Virus record (IMG/VR): IMGVR_UViG_3300021961_008712
Coordinates: 105,751-169,750 of that record
Length of the DNA: 64,000 nt
Strand: one strand, 5' to 3'
Source of the DNA: a virus
Shown: positions 520 to 63,186 of the stretch, piece by piece
How positions within the stretch are numbered: the first letter of the stretch is position 1
Layout of the letters: every line of letters starts with the position of its first letter
Notes under the pieces: model-generated
What the model was told of the DNA's origin: nothing
Databases searched by the model: none
Seen by the model: only the letters and a program-made list of their open reading frames with translations
Made by a program: the position numbers and the translations under genes

Positions 520-549
520 GTTGCATATGAAATAAAAAGTTCTTATATT
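520..549 (+). promoter_or_regulatory. Class I promoter GTTG-N16-TTCTTATATT for the que operon
   Basis: Member of a ~21-copy fixed-spacing motif found upstream of gene starts. Confidence 0.75.
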
Positions 550-567
550 ATTATAATAGAAGACAAC

Positions 568-595
568 AGTGTCGTAGCACCACTTTAAAAACACA
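568..595 (+). ncRNA. preQ1-I riboswitch-like aptamer, copy 1
   Basis: AGUG-UCGUAGCAC-CACU-UUAAAAACAC: short P1, UCG..G..C loop and A-rich tail, lying between a promoter and the first ATG of the queD/queE operon. Confidence 0.7.
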
Positions 596-598
596 TTT

Positions 599-850
599 AT
601 GAAAACAGAAGAACAAAGGTTATTAGACGAACTCTACGATGTAGAGACAAGAAGAGTATCTAAAATTAAAGATCTCTCCACCTCACCCACACTTGAAGAT
701 TATCCCGACGCAAAAAAACATCAAATTGTGTCGTTTATTAAATCAGGAATTCGTATATTAGGATATATACTTATTCCTTTTGATTTATTTTGGGCAGCAG
801 GAATATTAGTATTATCAGAAGTTGTTGGAATATTAGAAGAGTTGGTATGA
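599..850 (+). CDS. Hypothetical membrane protein, first gene of que operon
   Basis: ORF with a hydrophobic C-terminal half. Confidence 0.7.
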   Translation: MKTEEQRLLDELYDVETRRVSKIKDLSTSPTLEDYPDAKKHQIVSFIKSGIRILGYILIPFDLFWAAGILVLSEVVGILEELV

Positions 851-1011
851 TAGAGGTAGTTAAGCACACTTTAGGAATTTGCGGAGAGCATTGGCATCCT
901 AGTGCACTTACAGTATTAGCTAGCAGTCCATTATTTGTAGCTACAGTTAACTACATTAAATGTAAATGCGGCGGATTGTTTAATCATAAAAAAAGTTGTA
1001 ATAATGAGTAA
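847..1011 (+). CDS. Small hypothetical protein (Cys/His-rich)
   Basis: ATGA overlap with the upstream stop gives a start at 847 rather than 790. Confidence 0.55.
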   Translation: MIEVVKHTLGICGEHWHPSALTVLASSPLFVATVNYIKCKCGGLFNHKKSCNNE

Positions 1012-1474
1012 ATTTCAATCAACAAAAGTATTTGATGGATTTAGTACCTGCTTTAGACAATGGAAAGCAGAAGATACTCATTGTAGGTTTCTACATGGGT
1101 ATGGAGTTTCAATTAAAATTTGGTTCGAAGGTGAATTAGATGAAAGAAACTGGGTATGGGACTTTGGCGGTATGAAAAGAGCTAAAGGTAAAATAGACGG
1201 TTTATCTCCTAAAGAATGGTTTGAGTATATGTTTGACCATACTGTTATTGTAGCAGAAGATGATCCGCAATTAGGAAATTATTTCAGAAAAATGGACCGT
1301 AACGGTACAATCCAACTGCGTGAAGTACCTGCTACTGGAGCAGAGAAGTTTGCCGAATTTGTGTACTCAAAAGTTAATCCTTTTATTGAGGAAGAAACTA
1401 ACGGTAGAGTAACTATTACTAAAGTAGAATTCAGAGAACACGATAAAAATTCAGCTATTTATGTCCCTAGGTAG
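1004..1474 (+). CDS. queD: 6-carboxy-5,6,7,8-tetrahydropterin synthase (PTPS/QueD family)
   Basis: HCRFLHGY, DFGG, FDHT and E-F-A motifs. Adjacent to queE. Confidence 0.9.
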   Translation: MSKFQSTKVFDGFSTCFRQWKAEDTHCRFLHGYGVSIKIWFEGELDERNWVWDFGGMKRAKGKIDGLSPKEWFEYMFDHTVIVAEDDPQLGNYFRKMDRNGTIQLREVPATGAEKFAEFVYSKVNPFIEEETNGRVTITKVEFREHDKNSAIYVPR

Positions 1475-2237
1475 AATAGAAGATTATAATAAAGTACTAC
1501 CCATCGTTGAACTTTATACTGCAGTACAATCTGAAGGTTCTAGACAAGGTTATCCGACTATTGTCATAAGAACAACAGGATGTACTCATAGATGCTACTT
1601 TGGAGAAGGTGGCTGGTGTGATAGCTGGTATACTTCTATTCACCCAGAAAAAGGTAGATATACCTTTAATGATATCATAGATATGTACGATAAAAATCCT
1701 CATATCTCAGAAATGATGTTAACCGGTGGTTCTCCTTCAATGCACGGCAAATTAGTAAACGAATTAACACACCTAGCACATGAAAGAGGTATTTTTATCA
1801 CTATGGAGAACGAAGGTAGTCATTACCTTGAGACCGATTATCCTATTGATCTCCTGTCTATTAGCCCTAAGTTCTCTAATAGTGTTCCTATTATTGGCGT
1901 ATCCACACCTCAAGGTGGTATAGTAGATGATAGAATGGTTAAACAGCATAATAAGTATAGATTAAATTTAGACGCTATTAGAAAGTCAATTGCGTATCAT
2001 AAGGACTACCATATTAAACCGGTATTAGATAAAGACTTAACTATATACAGCGAGGTTAGGCAGTTTTTAGATAGCCTAAATATTCCTAATGAAAAAGTCT
2101 GGATGATGCCAGCTGGAGATACAAGAGTTGCATTATTTGAAACTTATCCTGTAGTTATGGATTTTTGTAGAGATGAAGGTTACAGATTTACAGGAAGAGC
2201 ACACATAATGGCATTTGATACACAACGAGAAGTATGA
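1461..2237 (+). CDS. queE: 7-carboxy-7-deazaguanine synthase (radical SAM)
   Basis: E..T.VQSEG, RTTGCTHRC...WCDS, LTGGSP and SISPK motifs. Confidence 0.92.
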   Translation: MSLGRIEDYNKVLPIVELYTAVQSEGSRQGYPTIVIRTTGCTHRCYFGEGGWCDSWYTSIHPEKGRYTFNDIIDMYDKNPHISEMMLTGGSPSMHGKLVNELTHLAHERGIFITMENEGSHYLETDYPIDLLSISPKFSNSVPIIGVSTPQGGIVDDRMVKQHNKYRLNLDAIRKSIAYHKDYHIKPVLDKDLTIYSEVRQFLDSLNIPNEKVWMMPAGDTRVALFETYPVVMDFCRDEGYRFTGRAHIMAFDTQREV

Positions 2238-2488
2238 GTTTTATTATAGGATCAAAATGTATTGGTACTAAAGATGGAGCCTGTATTGCAGTCTGTCCAG
2301 TAGACTGTATTGCAGAAGGAGAAGAATCTATGTACATTAATCCTGAAGTATGCATTGACTGTGGTGCATGTGTCCCGGAATGCCCTGTAGAAGCTATATT
2401 TGATACAGAAGAACAAGCAATCGCAGCCGGAGAATTAGAAGCAGTAAAAAAGAATTATCAATTTTATGGTTTAACATACAAACAATGA
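2234..2488 (+). CDS. fdx: Dicluster-type 4Fe-4S ferredoxin
   Basis: C...CIAVCPVDCI and CIDCGACVPECPVEAI. Confidence 0.92.
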   Translation: MSFIIGSKCIGTKDGACIAVCPVDCIAEGEESMYINPEVCIDCGACVPECPVEAIFDTEEQAIAAGELEAVKKNYQFYGLTYKQ

Positions 2489-2676
2489 CAGCAGAAGAAT
2501 TTGTTATTTGGTTTAGAGGTTTTGTCAACGGTGCTCACCACTTTAATATTACTCCACAGCAATGGGAGTACTTAAAGGAAAAACTAGATGAAGTAGAAAG
2601 TAAAAATACTCTAGCAGATTACACTGCCGGTAATTGGTTTATTAATAACACATGGGAGAAAACAAAATCTACTTAA
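2485..2676 (+). CDS. Hypothetical protein
   Basis: ORF overlapping both neighbours. Confidence 0.6.
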   Translation: MTAEEFVIWFRGFVNGAHHFNITPQQWEYLKEKLDEVESKNTLADYTAGNWFINNTWEKTKST

Positions 2677-3056
2677 CTTGGGAGGATGTCTATGAGCTAT
2701 TAGACAAAATTCATGAACAAACAAAAGGAGAAATCAAATATGTAACCGGTATTCCTAGAGGAGGAATTCTTTTAGCAGTACTTTATTCACATAGATTTAA
2801 TGTACAGTACTTTGAATTTAAAAGTAATCATTATCATGATTTGTTAATTATAGACGATATAGCTGATACAGGAGATACTTTTTTAAACTTAAAAGAAGAC
2901 ATAAAACTACCAAAAACAGCAGCACTTCATTATAAATCCACTTCTAAATTTAAACCTGATTTCTTCGGTAAGGAAGTACCAGGAGATTTCGGTTGGATAG
3001 TCTACCCTTGGGAAAAAAAAGATTCAAAACCAATTCAAGACTATTTGGATAATTGA
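2652..3056 (+). CDS. Type I phosphoribosyltransferase (xanthine/guanine PRT-like)
   Basis: GIPRGG, PRPP-binding LIIDDIADTGDT and C-terminal WIVYPWE. Confidence 0.88.
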   Translation: MGENKIYLTWEDVYELLDKIHEQTKGEIKYVTGIPRGGILLAVLYSHRFNVQYFEFKSNHYHDLLIIDDIADTGDTFLNLKEDIKLPKTAALHYKSTSKFKPDFFGKEVPGDFGWIVYPWEKKDSKPIQDYLDN

Positions 3057-3073
3057 GCAAAAATTCGTATATT
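3044..3073 (+). promoter_or_regulatory. Class I promoter TTTG-N16-TTCGTATATT for folE
   Basis: Fixed-spacing motif copy. Confidence 0.75.
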
Positions 3074-3084
3074 AAGATATAGAT

Positions 3085-3116
3085 AATGTGTCGCAGTACC
3101 ACTTTAAAAACAAAAA
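3085..3116 (+). ncRNA. preQ1-I riboswitch-like aptamer, copy 2
   Basis: AAUGUG-UCGCAGUAC-CACUUU-AAAAACAAAAA directly upstream of the folE ATG. The loop differs from the T. tengcongensis preQ1-I loop UCGCAGUAAC by one A. Confidence 0.72.
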
Positions 3117-3120
3117 ATTA

Positions 3121-3792
3121 ATGAATAACATTGAATTAGAATTAGTAAAAGAAGGATTTGCAAATGGTGTAGCCCCTGGGTTTCCTCTTACAGAAGTACA
3201 GAAAAGTGAAATGATTGAAGAAGCAGCATATGCTTATGGAAAGTTTCTAGATGCTTTAGGATGTGACTGGAGAAATGACCCTAACTCAGCTGATACTCCT
3301 CGTAGAGTAGCTAAAGCATATGTAAGAGATTTATGGAGAGGACGTTATGATGCAATGACTGAAATTACAGCATTCCCTTCTGATGGGTACAACGGTATCG
3401 TACAGGAGTCAAATATACCGGTGACGTCAATGTGTAGCCACCACCACCAAACAATAGGTGGTCGTGTGAGTATTGCCTATGTACCGTCTGAGAATGGTAA
3501 AGTAGTAGGTCTGTCTAAACTCAACCGTATCGTCGAACACTTTGGACGAAGAGGTGCTATACAAGAGCAACTTACTGTAGCCATTCATAATGCAATCGAT
3601 AAGATTTGTGAAGGTAACCTTGGAGTAGCTGTAATGATTGATGCAACTCATAACTGTGTAAGTTGTAGAGGAGTTAAGCACCAAGGAGCTTCAATGCAGA
3701 CAGCTAAACTATCAGGTTGCTTTCTTAACGAAGATTCTGCAAGAGCTGAGTTTTATAAAAACATAGAATTAGCAGGTAAATGTAGATATTAG
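3121..3792 (+). CDS. folE: GTP cyclohydrolase I
   Basis: TPRRVAK, SMCSHH, GLSKLNR, IQEQLT and HNCVSCRG. The ATG at 3121 is preferred over the GTG at 3088, which lies inside the aptamer. Confidence 0.95.
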   Translation: MNNIELELVKEGFANGVAPGFPLTEVQKSEMIEEAAYAYGKFLDALGCDWRNDPNSADTPRRVAKAYVRDLWRGRYDAMTEITAFPSDGYNGIVQESNIPVTSMCSHHHQTIGGRVSIAYVPSENGKVVGLSKLNRIVEHFGRRGAIQEQLTVAIHNAIDKICEGNLGVAVMIDATHNCVSCRGVKHQGASMQTAKLSGCFLNEDSARAEFYKNIELAGKCRY

Positions 3793-3801
3793 GAGTATAT
3801 T

Positions 3802-4527
3802 ATGTTTGAATGGATAAAAGAAAAATATGCGCACCTTGATAAAGACACTGTTCGCTTTAGAGCCGGAAGCCCAAACCCTATTATAAGGTTTGAAAATTTT
3901 CTTCCGGAAACAGAAGCATACAAACTCTATTATGAAAGCCAAAGTATACCAAATGTATACTGGAAAACTTTTGATAGAAATGGAAGTCATATGAAGGAGT
4001 TAAATAAAGTTGAACTTATGCCTATAGCATTCAATATTATTAACTACCTGAATAGCGGACCATTTTTAACTTACTTAGAGACATTAACAGGTATCGAAAG
4101 ACTTATCCCAGATCCCCATTTAATAGGAGCAGGATACAGTAAGAGCTTTAATGGTGATACCTTAAAGATACATACAGATTTTAACTGGAATAACGAATTA
4201 AGCCTTCATCGAGCATTAAGTTTAATAATCTATATTACACCAGAATGGAAGGCTGAATATGGAGGAGCATTGAGCTTTCTCGACAGAGATAGACAGCAAG
4301 AAATTTTTAAAGCTGATTGTTTATTTAATACAGCGTTAATTTGGAGACATGGTAAATATGCTTTTCATGGATACCCAGATCCAATTCAATGTCCATCTCA
4401 TTTGTCGAGAAATACTTTGAGACTGTTTTATTTTGTAAGTACCTCAGAACACAACCCAGATGATCCACCACACCGTAGTTTATACTGGTATGATGAAAAA
4501 TTAAATGAACCTATAGATTTAAAATAA
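3802..4527 (+). CDS. 2OG-Fe(II) oxygenase
   Basis: HTD...HG...R facial triad and W..EYGG motif. Confidence 0.85.
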   Translation: MFEWIKEKYAHLDKDTVRFRAGSPNPIIRFENFLPETEAYKLYYESQSIPNVYWKTFDRNGSHMKELNKVELMPIAFNIINYLNSGPFLTYLETLTGIERLIPDPHLIGAGYSKSFNGDTLKIHTDFNWNNELSLHRALSLIIYITPEWKAEYGGALSFLDRDRQQEIFKADCLFNTALIWRHGKYAFHGYPDPIQCPSHLSRNTLRLFYFVSTSEHNPDDPPHRSLYWYDEKLNEPIDLK

Positions 4528-4528
4528 A

Positions 4529-5698
4529 ATGATTTACGTAAATTTTGGAAAGAACTCGAGTGAAGACCATAAATGGTATTGGGCAGATAAAGGAGCTAAA
4601 GAATATACAGAATGGACCTCTGCTGACAAAAACCCTATTTTCTATTATGATAGACATGATTTAGCTATGAGAAATCTCGAGTTTAGAGACTTTGTTACAG
4701 AAGAAATGTGGGAACATTTTAGAACTAACGAAGAAGCTCTAATAGTAATTAATTTTGCTGATGATTATATTAACTCAGCAGACTTAGATAGATTTGCCTC
4801 TGATATCAAGCTTAGAAATGTAGATAGTTCTAGAGTTATTTTTGTATTGATGGATCAAAATTTCATTGAGTTTGTAGTTAATGGACTAGCAGCTAGAGGA
4901 ATAAATAATATTTCAGCTGATTACATTAATATTCTCATGAAAAGGGTACCTCCTAGGTATAATGATGAAGCAATAAAGACTCATAAATTCTCAATATTTA
5001 GTAGAAATTATTGGGATTGGAGGTTTGATATTTATTTAGAACTTCTTAAAAGAGGAGTATTAGCAAATACTAATTTCTCTTTTCATAATTACAATCCTTA
5101 TACAAATGAATTATACGATGAGGAAAGACTAAAAGCTGATGCGATTAAAAAGGGACACGTAATAACCCAAGAAGTAGAAGAATTTATTAAAGGTGTACCC
5201 TACGATTTGGGGAGCAGAAGTAACAAATTCTCTGATGTTATTTACGAAGCATTAAACACATCAGACTACCATATAGTTGTTGAATCTCATTTTGATCCTT
5301 TTTTAGGAATAAATTATGAGTTTGCTAAAAAAGACTATAATGAATTAACAATCTCTCCTGGATTTATCACAGAAAAAGTATGGAAACCTATTGCGTGTAA
5401 AAGACCGTTTTTTATTGCAGCAACTCCATTTATTTTGAGAGATTTGAAAAAGTTAGGATATAAAACTTTCGGAGAATTTATTGATGAATCCTATGATGAA
5501 ATCGTAGATGATAAACAAAGATTACTTGCTCTAACTTCTGAAATTGAACGCATAAATAATCTTCCAACCGAAGAGTATAATCAGCTTCTAGCTTCTTTGC
5601 AAAATATAGTAGAGTATAACCATAGTGTATATATTAACCAGTGGGAAAATGTAAATTTTACTAAGTACCCTTTTCTACATGGAATAGTTGTACTTTAA
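4529..5698 (+). CDS. Glycosyltransferase-like phage protein
   Basis: C-terminal ITEKVWKPI..KRPF..LKKLGYKTF..IDESYD motif typical of phage GT-B/fucosyltransferase-like proteins. Confidence 0.55.
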   Translation: MIYVNFGKNSSEDHKWYWADKGAKEYTEWTSADKNPIFYYDRHDLAMRNLEFRDFVTEEMWEHFRTNEEALIVINFADDYINSADLDRFASDIKLRNVDSSRVIFVLMDQNFIEFVVNGLAARGINNISADYINILMKRVPPRYNDEAIKTHKFSIFSRNYWDWRFDIYLELLKRGVLANTNFSFHNYNPYTNELYDEERLKADAIKKGHVITQEVEEFIKGVPYDLGSRSNKFSDVIYEALNTSDYHIVVESHFDPFLGINYEFAKKDYNELTISPGFITEKVWKPIACKRPFFIAATPFILRDLKKLGYKTFGEFIDESYDEIVDDKQRLLALTSEIERINNLPTEEYNQLLASLQNIVEYNHSVYINQWENVNFTKYPFLHGIVVL

Positions 5699-5716
5699 AA
5701 TTATTTTTATTATATT
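5687..5716 (+). promoter_or_regulatory. Class I promoter GTTG-N16-TTATTATATT
   Basis: Motif copy 7 nt upstream of ATG 5723. Confidence 0.6.
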
Positions 5717-5722
5717 ATAGAT

Positions 5723-6121
5723 ATGGAAATAGATATTAGACCTTGGGGTAGATATGAAGTGTTGCTAGATGCTGAATATACTAAAGTAAAGTTGATTACT
5801 GTAGAACCTCAAAAAAAACTATCGTACCAATCTCATGAAAAGAGACAGGAATATTGGACTGTTGTTCAAGGTACCTTAACTGTAATTCTTGACGATAAAA
5901 CTATTTCTGTACCTACCGGTGATTCTATTCACATTCCTTTAGGCTCTAAACATAGAGCTTGGAATAAGACAGAAACTCCTGTTCAATTTGTAGAAGTACA
6001 AACAGGAACTTATTTTGGAGAAGATGATATCGTAAGATATGAAGATGATTTTGGAAGAGCCGAGTTAGAACATTTAAGAGATGGAAATTATATTGGCGGA
6101 TTAACAATGCCTAAAAGATAA
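5723..6121 (+). CDS. Mannose-6-phosphate isomerase type II cupin domain
   Basis: RPWGRY, LSYQSH..RQEYW and EVQTG.YFGEDDIVRYED. Confidence 0.9.
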   Translation: MEIDIRPWGRYEVLLDAEYTKVKLITVEPQKKLSYQSHEKRQEYWTVVQGTLTVILDDKTISVPTGDSIHIPLGSKHRAWNKTETPVQFVEVQTGTYFGEDDIVRYEDDFGRAELEHLRDGNYIGGLTMPKR

Positions 6122-6125
6122 AAAA

Positions 6126-6659
6126 ATGGGTAAACAACTAACATTATTTACAGAAGAAGAAATGGGACCTTGTAGCAAGCATGATAACGAGTATGTACCC
6201 TTTGTTTCAGAAGTAGAAGAATTCAATGCCATATTTGGCAAACCTAATAACTATGAACCAACAATCCCAGCAAAAGCCGAGTGGGAGTTCGTATATAACT
6301 TTATACTCGAAGAATTGGAAGAATATAGACAAGCTTGCGAAGACGGAAACATCGTGGAAGTTTTGGATGCTTTGTGTGATATTACTTATGTTTCCCTTGG
6401 GAACGGTGTTATGTTACACGGCCTTAAGGATAAGATATGGCCAGCGTATCAAGAGGTTCAAGCGAGTAATCTTAGTAAAGCTTGCTCTACTGAAGAAGAA
6501 GCCGCACAGACTGTCACCGTACGAGCTAAAGAACAGGGTGAGCCTTGTCATTATGAAAAAGTTAATGGGAAGTTCATTGTCTACAGAACAAGAGATAGAA
6601 AAGTAATGAAATCAGTTAATTACTTTAGACCAGATTTAACTAAGTACTTTAATGGTTAA
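6126..6659 (+). CDS. MazG-like/PRA-PH nucleoside triphosphate pyrophosphohydrolase
   Basis: EELEE..EVLDALCDITYV and EVQASNLSK motifs. N-terminal QLTLF. Confidence 0.85.
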   Translation: MGKQLTLFTEEEMGPCSKHDNEYVPFVSEVEEFNAIFGKPNNYEPTIPAKAEWEFVYNFILEELEEYRQACEDGNIVEVLDALCDITYVSLGNGVMLHGLKDKIWPAYQEVQASNLSKACSTEEEAAQTVTVRAKEQGEPCHYEKVNGKFIVYRTRDRKVMKSVNYFRPDLTKYFNG

Positions 6660-6852
6660 TTTAGAAGATCATATAGTAGTAATTGAAGGTAAAAAGTACG
6701 TACCTTATGAACTTGCTGTAGAAGCTTATACTCAAAAGCATGAGTATGAAGAAAATCAAGCTAAATTTGATGCAGCAATGAAATTAATAGAGACCTCAGT
6801 TCAAGATCTTTCACAAGCTTTAAACATCAGTAAACTAACAGGTGAAGAATAA
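6652..6852 (+). CDS. Hypothetical protein
   Basis: ORF coupled to neighbours. Confidence 0.6.
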   Translation: MVNLEDHIVVIEGKKYVPYELAVEAYTQKHEYEENQAKFDAAMKLIETSVQDLSQALNISKLTGEE

Positions 6853-7393
6853 ACCTATATTAATTTTTGGAGATAGTTTTAGTTCCAACTGGGGCAAAGA
6901 TTCAAGAAGAAGTTGGGTAGATATTATTTCGAAGAAATTTGATGTTGTTAATGTCGCGGAAGCAGGAGTAGGAGAATATAAAATTTTTTCTCAAATAAAG
7001 TCGTTAGATCTGAATAATTTTTCGTATATTATAGGTAATCATACGTCACATTCTCGTGTGCATTCTAGACAGTCAATTCACAATACCGTAATACATGGTA
7101 ATTGTGATTTACTTTATCTAGACAGTATGCACTTAAAAGAAGCAAGATGGTTTTTTGAAAATGTGTATGATGATGATTATTTTAAATTTACTTATGAACT
7201 AATAAGGGATAAGATTAATAGTAAATTACAAGGTTATAGAAGGTTTATTTTTGACCCTTTTTATTCAGAATATAAAGACTCAGTAAGTTTTGTAAATAAG
7301 TGGAAATTTGATTCTAATAATAAAAATCACTTTGATGCAAAAACGAATATTGAGATAGCAGAATTAATAAAAAATAAAATAGTTTATGGTTAG
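6842..7393 (+). CDS. SGNH/GDSL hydrolase-like protein
   Basis: IFGDSFS, NVAEAG and C-terminal NH. Confidence 0.7.
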   Translation: MKNKPILIFGDSFSSNWGKDSRRSWVDIISKKFDVVNVAEAGVGEYKIFSQIKSLDLNNFSYIIGNHTSHSRVHSRQSIHNTVIHGNCDLLYLDSMHLKEARWFFENVYDDDYFKFTYELIRDKINSKLQGYRRFIFDPFYSEYKDSVSFVNKWKFDSNNKNHFDAKTNIEIAELIKNKIVYG

Positions 7394-8207
7394 AATAGCT
7401 CACGAGAGTCCTAAAAGCATCTTTGATACTGTACAGAAGTTTACAGATTACGATTATGCATTAGTTCATCTATTTGAAGAAGATGAAGAGTACTTAAATA
7501 TGTTTAAAAAAGCTGTAAGTAGAGGGAGAGAAGTAATTCTCGATAACTCTATTTTTGAGTTAGAAGAAGCTTTTGATGCAGATAGATTTGCATACTGGAT
7601 TAAAGAATTGAGACCTACTTGGTATATTGTTCCGGATGCATTAGAGGATTCTAAGCGAACTATGAATCAAATGGCTGAATGGAATATGAAATACTCAAAC
7701 GTTCCAGGTAAGAAAATTGGAGTTGTTCAGGGTAAGACATATGAGCAAATTAAAGCTTGCTACATCTTTATGGATGAAATCGCAAAGGTAGACATGATTG
7801 CTATCTCTTTTGACTATTCGTATTATACTGAATCTGTCCCTCATCCTAACAAATACGTAAGTTGGATGCTTGGGAGAGTTAAACTACTCGGAGACTTAAT
7901 GAGAGACGGTGTGATAAACGAGAAGAAGCCTCATCACCTATTAGGATGTGGATTACCTCAAGAATTCCAATACTATAAACACTCAGACTATAATTGGCTG
8001 TATTCCTTAGATACCTCTAATCCGGTAGTACACGGTATTAAGGGTATAGAGTATAAAGACCAAGGACTTTGGAGTAAAGAATCGCAGAAACTATTTGAGA
8101 TGATTAATAGTGAAGTAAGTATGGATCAACTTCATCTCATTAAGTATAATATTCAAAAATTTAGATGGTTTACAAATGGGCAGACGGACGTGGATAGCAT
8201 TTTTTAG
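7386..8207 (+). CDS. dpdA: DpdA-like 7-deazaguanine transglycosylase (TGT fold)
   Basis: ILDNS.FE, IVPD, GVVQG, HLLG and SLDTS match the TGT/DpdA barrel. Located inside the que cluster, with no TGT Zn-binding C-terminus. Confidence 0.75.
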   Translation: MVRIAHESPKSIFDTVQKFTDYDYALVHLFEEDEEYLNMFKKAVSRGREVILDNSIFELEEAFDADRFAYWIKELRPTWYIVPDALEDSKRTMNQMAEWNMKYSNVPGKKIGVVQGKTYEQIKACYIFMDEIAKVDMIAISFDYSYYTESVPHPNKYVSWMLGRVKLLGDLMRDGVINEKKPHHLLGCGLPQEFQYYKHSDYNWLYSLDTSNPVVHGIKGIEYKDQGLWSKESQKLFEMINSEVSMDQLHLIKYNIQKFRWFTNGQTDVDSIF

Positions 8208-8718
8208 TCAGACAGGCGGAGAAATTGCTGACCTATCAGAAAAGCTTGGATTTTGGCCTGATAGAATTATTACAAATGAAAGACCAGATCATCTCAGAAC
8301 TGTAGATCCTAGAATTGAGAAAAGAGGGTACTTTACTTTTAGTAATAAACCAGACCTAGAAGAATATGAAGATCTTCTGGTTTACTTTCCTGGAGCATTA
8401 ATAACTCTTCACGGTTGGTTGAGAATTATGCCTTCTGAAATCTGTGAGAAATTTAGCGTGTTTAATGGGCATCCTGGCTTAATAACATTATATCCAGAAC
8501 TTAAAGGTAAGGATCCTCAAATTAGAGCGTATGAAGGAAAGTATGAAAAAATAGGAGCTGTTTTACATAAAGTTACAGCAGGTGTAGATGAAGGTCCTAT
8601 AATTGCGGAAGATTATTTTCTTAACGAAGGGTTGGAGCTTAACGATATTTTTCGTAAATTAAAAGATATCAGTTTATTTATGTGGTTTGTATACTTAACA
8701 ACGGTTTTAAATGATTAA
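8176..8718 (+). CDS. PurN-like formyltransferase, probable preQ1 formyltransferase (DpdN-like)
   Basis: FSQTG, LHGWLRI, NGHPG and HKVTAGVDEGPII formyltransferase motifs. Overlaps dpdA. Confidence 0.8.
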   Translation: MGRRTWIAFFSQTGGEIADLSEKLGFWPDRIITNERPDHLRTVDPRIEKRGYFTFSNKPDLEEYEDLLVYFPGALITLHGWLRIMPSEICEKFSVFNGHPGLITLYPELKGKDPQIRAYEGKYEKIGAVLHKVTAGVDEGPIIAEDYFLNEGLELNDIFRKLKDISLFMWFVYLTTVLND

Positions 8719-8893
8719 ATGTATGGATAAAGAATTTTATTTAGTAAGAAAAAACGAAAGCAATGCATTTCAAAGATTAATGACGTTCTTTTTAGAACAA
8801 AATAAAAAATATGGTGCTGATTTCGGAGTAGCAGGAATGTACAATACTTTAAATAGGTTTTATGATAAAAAGAATAGCATTAGTAGGGGCTAG
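8711..8893 (+). CDS. Small hypothetical protein
   Basis: ORF overlapping both neighbours. A class I motif at 8631-8660 lies upstream. Confidence 0.4.
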   Translation: MIKCMDKEFYLVRKNESNAFQRLMTFFLEQNKKYGADFGVAGMYNTLNRFYDKKNSISRG

Positions 8894-9383
8894 TAGTACA
8901 GGTAAGACTACTGTCTATGAACTACTTAAAAATAAATTACCTAAATATGAATTCGTAAACGAATCTACTAGAACTGTAGGTAGTTACGGATTTCCTATTA
9001 ATGAAGAAGGTACTGATGCTACTCAACTGGCTATAAGTAGTTTTCATTTAGAAGCTTTACTGCAACCTTATAATCTAGTATTGGATAGGTGTTATATGGA
9101 TTTACTCGTATATTCTAAGTTTATGGATAAATTATCTGTAAAGACATATAACTATATTGAAGATATTTGGAATAGAGTTAAAGGTGAATATACTCACTAT
9201 ATCTACTTTCCTATTGAGTTCGAATCAGTAGATGACGGAGTAAGAAGTGTTAACGAAGAATGGAGAACTAAAATTGATGATGAATTTAAAGCTGTACTAG
9301 AAGGAGTTAGACAGCCTTACTTAACCGTTACTGGTTCTCCTATGCAAAGAGTTGAACAAATATTAAAATTTATAAATGTATAG
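8862..9383 (+). CDS. P-loop nucleotide kinase (AAA_28/dNMP kinase-like)
   Basis: GASSTGKTT, LDR..D..Y and DDGVR. Confidence 0.8.
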   Translation: MIKRIALVGASSTGKTTVYELLKNKLPKYEFVNESTRTVGSYGFPINEEGTDATQLAISSFHLEALLQPYNLVLDRCYMDLLVYSKFMDKLSVKTYNYIEDIWNRVKGEYTHYIYFPIEFESVDDGVRSVNEEWRTKIDDEFKAVLEGVRQPYLTVTGSPMQRVEQILKFINV

Positions 9384-9741
9384 ATACGAAGCAAAACTAG
9401 TCAGAGTAGTAGATGGAGATACTGCCGACGTAATGATCGATCTTGGCTTTGACGTTTGGACTAAAGCTAGATTAAGATTTAATGGAGTAGATACTTGGGA
9501 AAGTAGAACCCGAAATTTAGAAGAAAAAGAAAAAGGTTTACTTGCTAAAGAATTTACTGAATCCTACCTAACACGTAATGATGGAAAATTTCAGATTCAA
9601 TCATTTGGAGTAGGTAAGTACGGTAGAGTGTTAGCAGATATATACATTAAGGGTGAGGAAAAATCTCTAAATCAACTACTAATAGAAAATGGTCATGCGT
9701 ATTTTTACGATGGCGGTACAAAACAAATTTTTAAAGGTTAA
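9376..9741 (+). CDS. Thermonuclease (SNase-like)
   Basis: RVVDGDT, RFNGVDTWE, GKYGRVLA and LIENGHA. Confidence 0.9.
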   Translation: MYRYEAKLVRVVDGDTADVMIDLGFDVWTKARLRFNGVDTWESRTRNLEEKEKGLLAKEFTESYLTRNDGKFQIQSFGVGKYGRVLADIYIKGEEKSLNQLLIENGHAYFYDGGTKQIFKG

Positions 9742-9743
9742 TT

Positions 9744-10652
9744 ATGGAAGAAGTAAAGAATTATCAAGACGTTGTAGCAATTGCATCTAAACACTTAGGT
9801 AAGGTAGGCGGTGATGGGTATAAGGATACTTATGATCCTTCACTACTAGTTAAAATTCCTCGTATCTTAAATAGAGAAGGATATGGTCTTTCCGGAAAAG
9901 AATTTGTAGGAGTTGATGTATGGAATGCTTACGAAGTATCAGCTATTACTACTAAAGGTCAACCTGTTGCTGGTATGCTTAAAATCGTATGTCCCGCGAA
10001 TTCGGAATTTCACGTAGAATCTAAGTCTATAAAATTGTATTTAAACTCTTTTAATATGACGCAGATTGGTAGTACTGCTGCTGACTGTATTACCGGTATT
10101 GAAGCTAGAGTAGAGAGAGACTTAAGAGAACTTTTAGAAGCAGACGTTACAGCAAGATTCTTTACCTCAGAAATGGAATTTGAAAGTCTAACTTTCCAGG
10201 GATACGATCCTTTAGATCAAATAACTAACTTAGATGCTATAGACTTTACAGCCTTTAAATCTGATGCTTCTCAACTAGATGTTGAAGAGCATTCATCTAG
10301 TACCGAAATAAAGTACTCCTCTAATTTACTTAGATCAAATTGTAGAGTTACTAATCAACCGGATTGGGGTGATGTGTTTATTCGAATGGAGGGTAAAAAT
10401 ATTCCCACACCAGAATCAGTAGCTAAGTATATTGTTTCTCATAGAACAGTTAGTCACTTCCATGAGGAGATATGTGAAATGATTTTTAAACATTTGATGG
10501 ATGCTTGTAACCCTGATCAGTTAATGGTGGCTTGTTTATATACTCGAAGAGGAGGTATTGATATTAATCCTATTAGAGCTACACACTCATTATATATACC
10601 GGACTTCTTTACTGAGCCTCTATTTACTATTAAGAAGACCCTTAGACAATAA
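9744..10652 (+). CDS. queF: NADPH-dependent preQ0 reductase, bimodular type
   Basis: ESKSIKLYLNSF QueF motif, RSNCRVTNQPDWG, FHEE and YTRRGGIDINP. Confidence 0.93.
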   Translation: MEEVKNYQDVVAIASKHLGKVGGDGYKDTYDPSLLVKIPRILNREGYGLSGKEFVGVDVWNAYEVSAITTKGQPVAGMLKIVCPANSEFHVESKSIKLYLNSFNMTQIGSTAADCITGIEARVERDLRELLEADVTARFFTSEMEFESLTFQGYDPLDQITNLDAIDFTAFKSDASQLDVEEHSSSTEIKYSSNLLRSNCRVTNQPDWGDVFIRMEGKNIPTPESVAKYIVSHRTVSHFHEEICEMIFKHLMDACNPDQLMVACLYTRRGGIDINPIRATHSLYIPDFFTEPLFTIKKTLRQ

Positions 10653-32157: not shown

Positions 32158-33269
32158 TTAAAAGATTAAAAGCAAACATTTTTCCATCGATAATAGCTCT
32201 TTCAGCATTATCGGTCTCTTTATCTGCAGCATTTTATTCTGTTAGTGGACTATCAAAACTATTTGCCGGAGCTAGCTTTGAAGTAATAATAATGGCTGCC
32301 TCTTTAGAAGTAGCTAAATTAGTTATTGCATCCCTACTATACCAGTATTGGGACACGTTGAATAAACTTCTCAGAACGTATCTTACTGTATCTGCTGCAG
32401 TATTAGTATTGATTACTAGTATGGGTATATATGGATTTTTGAGTGCGGCATATCAAGAATCATACTCTAAACTTAATGTCAGTTTAAACGAAATTTCGTT
32501 TCTTGAAAGTAAAGCTAAATTCTATGAGGATGATGTTATAAGATACGATGCTGAGCTTGAAAGAATATCTAACAATATAGGTACTTTATCATCTGCTAAA
32601 TCTCAACAAATTCAATATACTGATGCAGATGGAACAGTTAGAAACACTGTATCAACTGCAGAACTAAGACTAGCACAGTCTCGTATTGCAACTGAAGAGG
32701 TAAACAGACAAGAAGTAAACAAAAAGCGAACGATTGCTGCTGATAGTCTACAGAAGTATAGAGTTGAAATATTAGAACTTCAAAACAATTCAGAACTTGC
32801 CGCAGAGTTAGGCCCACTGCAATACCTTTCCGGACTTACCGGAGCTCCAATGGATAAAATTATTAATATTTTACTGTTGGTTATAATATTTGTATTTGAT
32901 CCTTTAGCTATATCATTGGTAGTAGCAGCAAACTTTGCATTTGATCAAGCCAATAAAAAGAACCTCTATAATGAGTATGAAGATGAAATAGAGCCTGATT
33001 TATGGGATGATGAGCCATGGGAAGATGATTTACCAGATGAAGCTAACGGTAACGAAGGAGAACATTATGATATAGATATTAATGATGTAGAACTTAAAGT
33101 TAGCGATGATTGGCAAATTCGTAATGAAGATGATACAGAAATTACTGAAAAAAAAGTAAAAAGAGTTTTACAGAAGACACCTACTAGAAAAAGAGTTGAA
33201 TTTACTGACGGCTCAGAAGGGTGGGTTAATAAAGCAGATGAAAATGACAACAAAATTACTTACTTCTAG
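32154..33269 (+). CDS. Multi-TM coiled-coil membrane protein with acidic tail
   Basis: Three N-terminal TM helices, coiled coil and IIFVFDPLAI TM helix. Confidence 0.75.
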   Translation: MIKRLKANIFPSIIALSALSVSLSAAFYSVSGLSKLFAGASFEVIIMAASLEVAKLVIASLLYQYWDTLNKLLRTYLTVSAAVLVLITSMGIYGFLSAAYQESYSKLNVSLNEISFLESKAKFYEDDVIRYDAELERISNNIGTLSSAKSQQIQYTDADGTVRNTVSTAELRLAQSRIATEEVNRQEVNKKRTIAADSLQKYRVEILELQNNSELAAELGPLQYLSGLTGAPMDKIINILLLVIIFVFDPLAISLVVAANFAFDQANKKNLYNEYEDEIEPDLWDDEPWEDDLPDEANGNEGEHYDIDINDVELKVSDDWQIRNEDDTEITEKKVKRVLQKTPTRKRVEFTDGSEGWVNKADENDNKITYF

Positions 33270-62661: not shown

Positions 62662-62747
62662 GCCTCGGTGGTGGAATAGGTAGACACGCCGGACTTAAAA
62701 TCCTGTGGGCTGTAGAGCCCGTGCCGGTTCGACCCCGGCCCGAGGTA
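62662..62747 (+). tRNA. tRNA-Leu(UAA)
   Basis: Acceptor GCCTCGG/CCGAGGT, anticodon loop CTTAAAA, long variable arm and T-arm GCCGG-TTCGACC-CCGGC. Confidence 0.92.
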
Positions 62748-62764
62748 CTAAAAAAATAAAAGAC

Positions 62765-63028
62765 ATGACATTTAAAAATTTAAGTTTTACCGACCATCCA
62801 GTTATACCTGGAGCAATTCAAGCAGCTATTATTTGTAATAATGGCAAAAGAATTAGCATTGTAGCTGGAACTAATTTATACAGTCATAGTAAAGGCGGAA
62901 TAAGAGCTGCTGTTGATAATCCAGAAGAAGTGATTAGCTTCGAGGTCCTTGTAGAGGGTGAGGAAGATGTGAGAGGTTTTCAAAGTAGGCAAGATATAGA
63001 TAATATACTTGCTGTGAATAATCTCTAG
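62765..63028 (+). CDS. Hypothetical protein within tRNA cluster
   Basis: ATG at 62765 after tRNA-Leu. The track start at 62705 lies inside the tRNA. Confidence 0.65.
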   Translation: MTFKNLSFTDHPVIPGAIQAAIICNNGKRISIVAGTNLYSHSKGGIRAAVDNPEEVISFEVLVEGEEDVRGFQSRQDIDNILAVNNL

Positions 63029-63035
63029 AAAACAG

Positions 63036-63109
63036 GGACCAGTAGCTCAGCTGGATAGAGCATCTGCCTTCTAAGCAGACGGTCGCAGGTTCGAGTCCTG
63101 CCTGGTTCA
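63036..63109 (+). tRNA. tRNA-Arg(UCU)
   Basis: GGACCAG/CTGGTTC acceptor, TCTGC-CTTCTAA-GCAGA anticodon arm and canonical D/T arms. Confidence 0.95.
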
Positions 63110-63114
63110 CACAT

Positions 63115-63186
63115 TGATCTATGGTGTAATTGGCAACACGACAGATTTTGGTTCTGTAATTTAAGGTTCGAGTCCTTATAGATCAA
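63115..63186 (+). tRNA. tRNA-Gln(UUG)
   Basis: TGATCTA/TAGATCA acceptor, ACAGA-TTTTGGT-TCTGT and TAAGG-TTCGAGT-CCTTA. Confidence 0.93.

Follow-up and report, generated by a model that had tools for sequence, protein, structure and literature searches.

A leader element of ~28 nt stands twice in the window (the whole 64,000-nt stretch of phage DNA analyzed here), each time directly before genes of the 7-deazaguanine pathway. Sequence comparison makes it probable that these elements are cis-acting ~28-nt 5'-UTR RNAs that fold into an H-type pseudoknot, like that of the class I, type II preQ1 riboswitch, and give feedback control. We read the element as a phage-specific, shortened preQ1-I variant that would work without a Shine-Dalgarno sequence. 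On balance, we also favor the fuller picture of a phage-restricted, preQ1-sensing pseudoknot of ~28 nt, below the minimal natural aptamers solved, which would serve the giant Flavobacteriia phages as a Shine-Dalgarno-free OFF switch, folding an A-rich leader and providing feedback on the pathway by which every G of their DNA is exchanged. The earlier note's proposal of preQ1-I-like aptamers in 7-deazaguanine gene leaders is supported by a conserved, gene-restricted family, and by covariation in P1 and the pseudoknot.

Two copies of the element in the window

Across the 170-kb phage genome, the motif GTGTCG[Y]AG[Y]ACCACTTTAAAAACA is present just two times, at window positions 569-593 and 3088-3112. 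A search with the 25-mer consensus, allowing up to 3 mismatches, returned two matches in the window (versus 0.00 expected from shuffles), and no third copy was found in the whole 169,750-bp genome even with 6 mismatches allowed. Both copies are intergenic: copy 1 lies in an 82-nt gap between an ORF end at 516 and the ATG at 599, and copy 2 in a 64-nt gap between the phosphoribosyltransferase stop at 3056 and the folE ATG at 3121. The distance to the start is 7 nt for copy 1 (orf83-queD-queE operon) and 10 nt for copy 2 (folE). Each copy follows a promoter-like box; the arrangement described in the earlier note—two copies, each after a promoter motif and before the start codons of the queD/queE operon and folE—is thus confirmed in the sequence. 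This box, C[T/G]TATATT, is recurrent in the genome: ~25 occurrences precede + strand genes, 11-60 nt from the ATG, and transcription may start there. The features are as follows, with the basis of each in brackets where noted:

542..549, +: promoter-like box CTTATATT, upstream of copy 1 (recurrent box)
568..595, +: copy 1, aptamer-like element (sequence, family model, family covariation of P1 and P2)
568-571, +: copy 1 P1 5' strand (AGUG)
U572 and C573, +: copy 1 L1, followed by G574
575-577, +: copy 1 P2 5' strand (UAG)
578-579, +: copy 1 L2
C580, +: copy 1 specificity C
581-584, +: copy 1 P1 3' strand (CACU)
585-591, +: copy 1 L3 (UUAAAAA)
C592 through A595, +: copy 1 P2 3' strand, pairs C592-G577 and A595-U575
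599..3056, +: operon led by copy 1 (ORFs, Pfam)
599-850, +: orf83, conserved small ORF of unknown function
847-1011, +: small ORF
1004-1474, +: queD (Pfam match PTPS in the operon)
1461-2237, +: queE (Pfam match Radical_SAM in the operon)
2234-2488, +: ferredoxin (Pfam match Fer4 in the operon)
2485-2676, +: orf63
2652-3056, +: phosphoribosyltransferase (Pfam match Pribosyltran in the operon)
3066..3073, +: promoter-like box CGTATATT, upstream of copy 2 (recurrent box)
3087..3114, +: copy 2, weakened element (sequence, family model)
G3088-C3102, U3089-A3101 and G3090-C3100, +: copy 2 P1 pairs
C3099, +: copy 2 specificity C
3121..10652, +: gene string led by copy 2 (Pfam)
3121-3792, +: folE (Pfam)
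Between folE and the DpdA-like gene, +: 2OG-Fe(II) oxygenase, cupin and MazG-like genes of the copy 2 string (Pfam)
7386-8207, +: DpdA-like gene (named from the annotated immuto homologue)
8176-8718, +: formyltransferase (Pfam)
Between formyltransferase and QueF, +: P-loop kinase and nuclease genes of the copy 2 string (Pfam)
9744-10652, +: bimodular QueF (Pfam)

There is no copy of the element at queC.

The two copies differ in quality. Copy 1 scores 64.8 bits against the family model, R1, and copy 2 scores 46.2 bits. P1 of copy 2 is only 3 bp long because the outer U3087/U3103 is mismatched, placing it among the few family members with an unpaired outer P1 pair. In P2, G3096-C3111 is paired and the second pair, C3094/A3114, is mismatched—the sole C.A case at this position in the family alignment. 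Window copy 2 is a degraded, weakened outlier, a point on which the earlier note's account of two aptamers needs correcting. The caveats of that note were right: P1 comprises 4 bp in copy 1 but 3 in copy 2, with a loop of 9 nt versus 10 in T. tengcongensis (Tte). The element is absent before folE in the two nearest FolE relatives (89% identity: L004, L005); the 191-kb contig of L005 carries it before queD (L233).

Distribution across phages and associated genes

Well over 100 related phage contigs share the ~28-base leader. When all viral contigs were scanned for an exact 23-mer, blind to gene content, 68 stretches were returned; wherever such a copy has enough DNA downstream of it, the orf83-queD-queE operon, queD, queE or folE follows. 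The gene order of the copy 1 operon stands behind the element in dozens of contigs, with orf83 nearly always the first cistron. In one contig the element precedes folE2 (PF02649); FolE2 is non-homologous to FolE and does the same job. Within five other large phage genomes, R1 finds one or two copies each, ~2.3 kb apart. QueF is encoded in all seven element-bearing phages searched (this genome, immuto and the five large relatives). The earlier note had named occurrence before unrelated genes in relatives as evidence against its reading; among family members with enough flank, only deazaguanine genes follow the element. C30 lies 6-9 or 12-13 nt from the AUG across the family, and the intervening sequence contains neither a Shine-Dalgarno-like sequence nor a terminator.

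These associations bear on whether the element is a structured leader that senses nothing and instead enhances translation, or marks the mRNA for stability or processing, in two highly expressed operons. A-rich leaders do favor initiation in Bacteroidia, as reported in PMC6847099, and energy models predict no stable structure. However, deazaguanine genes are the only carriers among ~250 genes per genome, and the presence of the element before both folE and folE2 indicates that it follows enzymatic function rather than expression class. An enhancer would also have no need of covarying pairs and an invariant 9-nt loop. We regard a non-sensing leader as very unlikely.

Among cultured phages, immuto, whose DNA is fully fdPreQ1 (PMC10516641), carries the element before folE, at 32357-32403 of MW353175. 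It is missing in Vibrio phage VH7D, Cellulophaga phage phiST and Chryseobacterium phage MA9V-3; phiST produces 7-deazaguanine without queC or queF (PMC10516641). BLASTN of a 47-mer against GenBank phages gave no match.

Searches of cellular genomes returned no counterpart in 151 sampled Bacteroidia genomes, where R1 matched A-rich tails only and RF00522, the Rfam PreQ1 model, had no match. Scanning 185,579 bacterial and archaeal genomes with a degenerate pattern yielded 23 stretches, close to the chance expectation. One of these cellular matches (L165) is a phage contig binned into a metagenome-assembled genome. A look-alike conserved in Ruminococcaceae falls within a 560-aa ORF, in antisense orientation, and a Lysobacter look-alike is without a complementary stem; RF00522 never exceeded 17 bits in the five look-alike genomes tested. 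Three viral pattern matches were also set aside as chance: L192, inside structural genes; L210, at an ORF 3' end before a terminator; and L224, judged by its sequence identity to L210 rather than by its own context. Alignment A3 includes L224 as one row with an unpaired outer pair.

Helix covariation, pocket nucleotides and model searches

The earlier note had proposed looking for conservation and covariation in related phages; the family is conserved, P1 covaries, and a pseudoknot pair shows signs of covariation. P1 (4 bp) is 99% paired across the family, with compensatory changes at two pairs: the outer (AU 66, UA 14, GC 11) and an inner one (UA 76, AU 19). Its covariation score was reached by none of 500 shuffles, and RNAalifold independently predicts the same helix. 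P2 consists of two pairs only, with an L2 of 2 nt. The second pair, in the Tte C9-G33 register, is formed in 74 of 96 rows (UA 45, UG 15, CG 11, GC 3): C variants face G in 11 of 12 cases, G variants face C in all three, and other registers lack covariation. It is unpaired in about a quarter, mostly folE-class copies, window copy 2 included. Several covarying states are each confined to one clade, so independent events are few: by our count, about 4-5 in P1 and about 2 in P2. Together these changes support a P1 helix of 4 bp and, less firmly, a pseudoknot pair in the register of Tte C9-G33. Folding of single sequences yields no significant stability, a result that has no bearing either way on a ligand-dependent pseudoknot; by itself, the P1 hairpin is marginally stable, as expected of a ligand-dependent fold.

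Could the inverted repeat GNG..CNC instead be a DNA operator, through which a transcription factor represses the adjacent promoter? A short inverted repeat is indeed present, 15-25 bp downstream of the promoter-like box. However, the half-sites span only 3-4 bp, the orientation relative to the gene is constant and the distance to the AUG constrained, and conservation is higher in the asymmetric loop and tail than in the repeat itself. Furthermore, where distinct combinations of two copies came from one fetched locus, the stems differ in 10 of 12, and both stay complementary except at the outer pair in two combinations. Different complementary stems within one genome argue against a single sequence-specific DNA-binding protein, and we consider a DNA operator highly improbable.

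Class I alpha-mode recognition uses (i) a floor G-C pair, (ii) U6, (iii) a specificity C preceded by A, (iv) an A before C30, and (v) a C7.G11-C30 ceiling (PMC11625349). All class I, type II pocket nucleotides are present in the element and are invariant or nearly so: closing G-C, U6, C7, G11, the C of 'AC', and A29-C30. The closing G-C of P1 (the pocket floor, acting with U6; roles per PMC11625349) is invariant in 95 of 95 distinct rows, as is the following U. The specificity C and its preceding A are invariant (alignments A1 and A3; C580 and C3099 in the window), as is the A run of L3. C7 is conserved in at least 90%, and the G-C30 pair is in register in 84 of 95, the remainder being shifted by L3 length. 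At some positions, the invariance owes something to how the set was assembled, since pattern searches supplied a portion of it; the subset ascertained through FolE does not carry that bias. The variable positions fall at Tte L2 and distal L3. The earlier note's mapping onto Tte preQ1-I, including the ligand-pairing C at 580 and 3099, holds.

The overall likeness to class I, type II riboswitches (T. tengcongensis, B. subtilis; PMC11625349) extends to the H-type pseudoknot, the closing G-C floor followed by U and C, the AG whose G pairs with the C after the A run, the 'AC' before the P1 3' strand, the A-rich L3, a probable second P2 pair in the C9-G33 register, and the association with preQ1-making genes. 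From G5 to C16, window copy 2 is the same as Tte minus one A. The element differs in that P1 has 4 bp (5 in solved structures), the loop 9 nt (10-12; Tte 10) and L3 7 nt, the core spans ~28 nt (33-34), P2 is without a Shine-Dalgarno sequence, and the carriers are phages rather than cells.

The Infernal check with RF00522 suggested in the earlier note came out negative, which places the variant outside the current Rfam model. At the gathering score (39 bits), RF00522 has no match at the elements; at E<=10 it has none in 2.6 kb, in 66 nt, or in five related loci; and across the whole genome it gives three weak matches, all away from the elements. Reciprocally, R1 is blind to two genuine clostridial preQ1-I aptamers, giving a genuine aptamer 13.6 bits from the tail alone. 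Neither model recognizes the other family, so the element lies outside RF00522 as modelled. The two are alike in consensus P1 (aGuG...CaCu) and tail (AUAAAAAAC), whereas RF00522 has 14 positions separating its annotated P1 strands and anticipates CUAAGG as the tail. Without cross-model scores, the preQ1-I homology is argued from architecture and key nucleotides.

A short hairpin with a single-stranded A-rich tract beside the AUG is typical of phage translational operators. The element has this layout, overlapping the initiation region of phage mRNA as the operators of T4 RegA, gp43 and gp32 do, and it could be the RNA operator of a phage-encoded translational repressor (a pathway enzyme or small protein, in the manner of RegA or gp43), with a superficial resemblance to preQ1-I. 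The lack of an RF00522 score and the position of orf83, conserved and of unknown function, right behind the element would fit. Such an operator leaves unexplained the one-for-one match of invariant unpaired nucleotides with a small-molecule pocket, unlike the protein-bound T4 sites, and the tail-loop covariation in the Tte pseudoknot register; no candidate protein was found. We judge a repressor operator unlikely.

Proposed mechanism, ligand and significance

For the preferred preQ1-I-like riboswitch, we infer that the element is transcribed, what its ligand is, OFF polarity, feedback repression and ribosome-site occlusion. The predicted fold comprises a 4-bp P1 with an invariant closing G-C, a 9-nt loop with U, C, AG and the 'AC' specificity cytosine, an A-rich L3, and a short P2 made of the G-C30 pair and one covarying pair. 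Free preQ1, possibly preQ0, would pair with the specificity C and lock the pseudoknot, whose end lies 3-10 nt upstream of the AUG. According to PMC6847099, Bacteroidia mRNAs are without Shine-Dalgarno sequences and initiation is tuned by mRNA structure; the hosts of this phage group thus make no use of such sequences. The folded RNA would bury the A-rich, unstructured leader needed by these Shine-Dalgarno-blind ribosomes; translation of the first pathway enzymes would drop, giving feedback control over the base that replaces G in phage DNA.

There is a small chance that the preQ1-I architecture is tuned to another 7-deazaguanine, such as preQ0, CDG or the formylated preQ1 base. Known class I aptamers bind preQ0 too (PMC11625349), the shortened L2 and P1 could reshape the pocket, and fdPreQ1 is the end product in the DNA of the cultured relative. 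Against this, all preQ1-reading residues are retained, the floor G with its O6 contact to the aminomethyl group among them, and the encoded QueF in all seven element-bearing phages searched also points away from another ligand.

Phages are reported to carry riboswitches only very rarely (PMC5473149). The c-di-GMP-I riboswitch of C. difficile prophages and the glutamine riboswitch of cyanophages are, as the element would be, metabolite-sensing leaders in viral genomes; however, each is an ordinary representative of a cellular class, found in a handful of genomes (PMC5473149), whereas the element is widespread, phage-restricted, and placed before genes with which the virus makes its own DNA base. 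In the 2023 paper defining the fdPreQ1 DNA of immuto, neither a riboswitch nor regulation is mentioned (PMC10516641), and a full-text literature search found no paper tying a preQ1 riboswitch to phage deazaguanine genes.

The cultured phage-host pair of immuto and Flavobacterium sp. LMO8 makes the preQ1-riboswitch reading directly testable. If validated, the element would be a widespread viral riboswitch, and the first over a DNA-hypermodification pathway. It would show translation under natural riboswitch control in a lineage that makes no use of Shine-Dalgarno sequences—the preQ1 review (PMC11625349) names control without such sequences as a future challenge—and structural and synthetic studies would gain an aptamer of unusually small size. 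A virus that governs its own DNA chemistry through a metabolite-sensing RNA would likewise be a rare case.

Element copies and gene strings in the window

The nearest GenBank relatives of this virus are the Flavobacterium phages vB_FspM_immuto, with a nucleotide identity of only 78%, in the DpdA gene. Two sites, 569–593 and 3088–3112, carry the motif GTGTCG[Y]AG[Y]ACCACTTTAAAAACA, with no occurrence expected by chance; no third copy was found in the whole 169,750-bp genome with up to 6 mismatches allowed. Copy 1 lies in an 82-nt gap ahead of a string of overlapping ORFs, and copy 2 in a 64-nt gap ahead of a second gene string.

Gene strings behind the two element copies (positions where defined)
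Copy 1, 599–850: orf83, first ORF
Copy 1: 54-aa ORF, after orf83
Copy 1: queD (PTPS)
Copy 1: queE (radical SAM)
Copy 1: ferredoxin
Copy 1: orf63
Copy 1, 2652–3056: phosphoribosyltransferase, within the operon behind copy 1, interleaved with que genes
Copy 2: folE (GTP cyclohydrolase I), first gene
Copy 2: 2OG oxygenase
Copy 2: cupin
Copy 2, 6126–6659: MazG-like pyrophosphohydrolase, interleaved with que genes
Copy 2: DpdA homologue
Copy 2: formyltransferase
Copy 2, 8862–9383: P-loop kinase, interleaved with que genes
Copy 2: bimodular QueF

A queC gene is found 4.5 kb upstream of the window, and the whole-genome motif search gave no element copy for it. Together with the two strings it completes a phage-encoded route to preQ1, to which is added the formyltransferase, in immuto the mark of fdPreQ1-type DNA. 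The queC leader (whole-genome positions ~101,115–101,150; L186:1437–1470) reads as a GC-rich hairpin, AGCGU/ACGCU, directly after the upstream stop codon and followed by an A-rich stretch. In most contigs the element is followed first by orf83 (38–80% identity), whose 83-aa product has a hydrophobic helix at its C terminus and matches nothing in Pfam or PHROG. Three tRNA genes lie at 62662–63186 (Rfam 51–71 bits).

A box, C[T/G]TATATT, is found at 542–549 and 3066–3073, with the element copies 15–25 nt downstream. Genome-wide, the (A/T-rich)TT-C[G/T]TATATT box precedes + strand genes at ~25 sites, 11–60 nt from the gene and sometimes only 11–16 nt from the ATG. It is likely a promoter element, of the phage itself or of its host, in which case the leaders of some genes would be just a few nucleotides long. 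Judged by box position, the elements most likely lie inside 5' UTRs.

Distribution and gene context of the family

All IMG/VR contigs were scanned for an exact 23-mer, regardless of gene content, which gave 68 stretches; a looser pattern scan of viral contigs gave at least 120. Combined with FolE-based loci, a further source of members, these comprise >110 distinct sequence contexts; by the locus list, well over 100 contigs carry the element. Three pattern matches (loci L192, L210 and L224) were due to chance. In the cultured phage immuto, the element before folE scores 50.7 bits with R1, the family model built from the phage elements. R1 gives just 1–2 copies, ~2.3 kb apart, in each of five other large element-bearing genomes (116–177 kb), all five of which encode QueF.

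The tie to 7-deazaguanine genes claimed in the earlier note has held up: copies ahead of unrelated genes were looked for and none was found. All instances with enough downstream DNA precede the orf83-queD-queE operon, queD/queE directly, folE, or a lipoprotein-like ORF heading the same operon. At locus L119, a second, GAG-stem copy precedes folE2 (PF02649; L119:8334–8942) instead of folE. FolE2 is non-homologous to FolE and catalyses the same first pathway step; the element thus tracks enzymatic function rather than one particular gene. In locus L201 (minus strand), the regulated operon begins with a 197-aa lipoprotein-like ORF and has a thioredoxin-like gene ahead of queD, and the element's P2 pair takes the G-C form.

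No counterpart was found in 151 sampled Bacteroidia genomes, in Vibrio phage VH7D, or in phiST, whose 7-deazaguanine is made with neither queC nor queF (PMC10516641); a bacterial pattern scan gave only chance matches and one mis-binned phage contig. Phage genomes are reported to carry riboswitches only rarely (PMC5473149). A full-text literature search found no report of this element, and neither 'riboswitch' nor 'regulat' occurs in the text of PMC10516641.

Covariation in P1 and P2

P1 consists of N-G-N-G paired with C-N-C-N, and is 99% paired across 95 distinct sequences (outer pair AU 66, UA 14, GC 11; second inner pair UA 76, AU 19). In 500 shuffles the covariation score never came up to the observed value, pairing collapses in slid registers, and RNAalifold, unaided, predicts the identical four pairs. 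There are five fully complementary stem haplotypes. Where one fetched locus holds two copies, their stems differ in 10 of the 12 distinct combinations, and both stay complementary save for the outer pair in two combinations. A single DNA-binding protein seems hard to reconcile with such stems, since they differ within one locus while remaining complementary.

In the pseudoknot, the C at the end of the A-run stands opposite the loop G. The equivalent of C9 in the T. tengcongensis (Tte) aptamer, two nt upstream of the loop G, covaries with the third nt after that C (74 of 96 paired: UA 45, UG 15, CG 11, GC 3): C variants face G in 11 of 12 cases, and G variants face C in 3/3. Adjoining registers display no covariation, and the covarying register is that of the C9-G33 pair in the Tte structure. 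Because each of these states is limited to a few clades, the number of independent events is modest: roughly 4–5 for P1 and 2 for P2.

In window copy 2 the outer P1 pair is mismatched (U.U), as is the second P2 pair (C.A), and the score with R1 is 46 bits against 65 bits for copy 1. The two closest FolE relatives have no element before folE (one of their contigs keeps the element before queD). Taken together, these observations suggest that copy 2 may be a weaker or decaying switch.

Likeness to type II preQ1-I aptamers and a proposed model of control

In class I (alpha-mode) recognition, a conserved G-C pair closes P1 as the pocket floor, U6 lies in L1, a specificity cytosine (preceded by A in type II) stands directly before the P1 3' strand, an L3 adenine adjoins the conserved C, and C7.G11-C30 forms the ceiling (PMC11625349). 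These positions are invariant or >90% conserved in the phage family; variation falls on one position mapping to L2 and on two at the start of L3. Over the span G5 to C16, copy 2 differs from Tte by a single missing A. Unlike known type II aptamers, the phage element combines a 4-bp P1, a 9-nt loop and a 7-nt L3, and it lacks the Shine-Dalgarno sequence or terminator of the known class. Its core is ~28 nt, whereas known aptamers, at 33–34 nt, are already among the smallest known folds (PMC11625349).

The Rfam PreQ1 model (RF00522), with which the earlier note proposed checking its riboswitch reading in Infernal, never scored the element, because spacing and tail differ from the consensus aGuG[14]CaCuAUAAAAAACUAAGg. 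R1, for its part, did not recognise two genuine clostridial preQ1-I aptamers. Given this mutual non-recognition we keep the element out of RF00522, and regard it as a new variant, most likely working like a type II preQ1-I aptamer. Upstream of folE in locus L047 (near 3940–4000) lies a divergent relative missed by both models. Its GGUG/CACC stem is extensible to 6 pairs, its loop, UCGUAGUUC, has 'UC' where the family has 'AC' ahead of the 3' strand, and its L3, rich in A/U, is longer and terminates in AAAAC. This relative may form a bridge to type I aptamers.

C30 lies 6–9 nt upstream of the AUG in elements of the queD class and 12–13 nt upstream in those of the folE class. The P1 hairpin by itself is marginal, being the minimum-energy structure only in its GGAG/CUCC form (-3.9 kcal/mol). 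At 562–573, GACA...UGUC could form a 4-bp hairpin using the P1 5' strand plus U572 and C573, and copy 1 has this hairpin as its minimum-energy fold; many leaders of the queD class, though not all, contain the GAC. The hairpin may be a competing anti-aptamer fold. Bacteroidia mRNAs are without Shine-Dalgarno sequences, and mRNA structure and the nucleotides upstream of the start tune initiation (PMC6847099). In the best-supported model, whose polarity and ligand we infer, ligand would lock the fold and so make the A-rich, single-stranded leader unavailable to the ribosome; translation of the first enzymes of the pathway would thereby be repressed.
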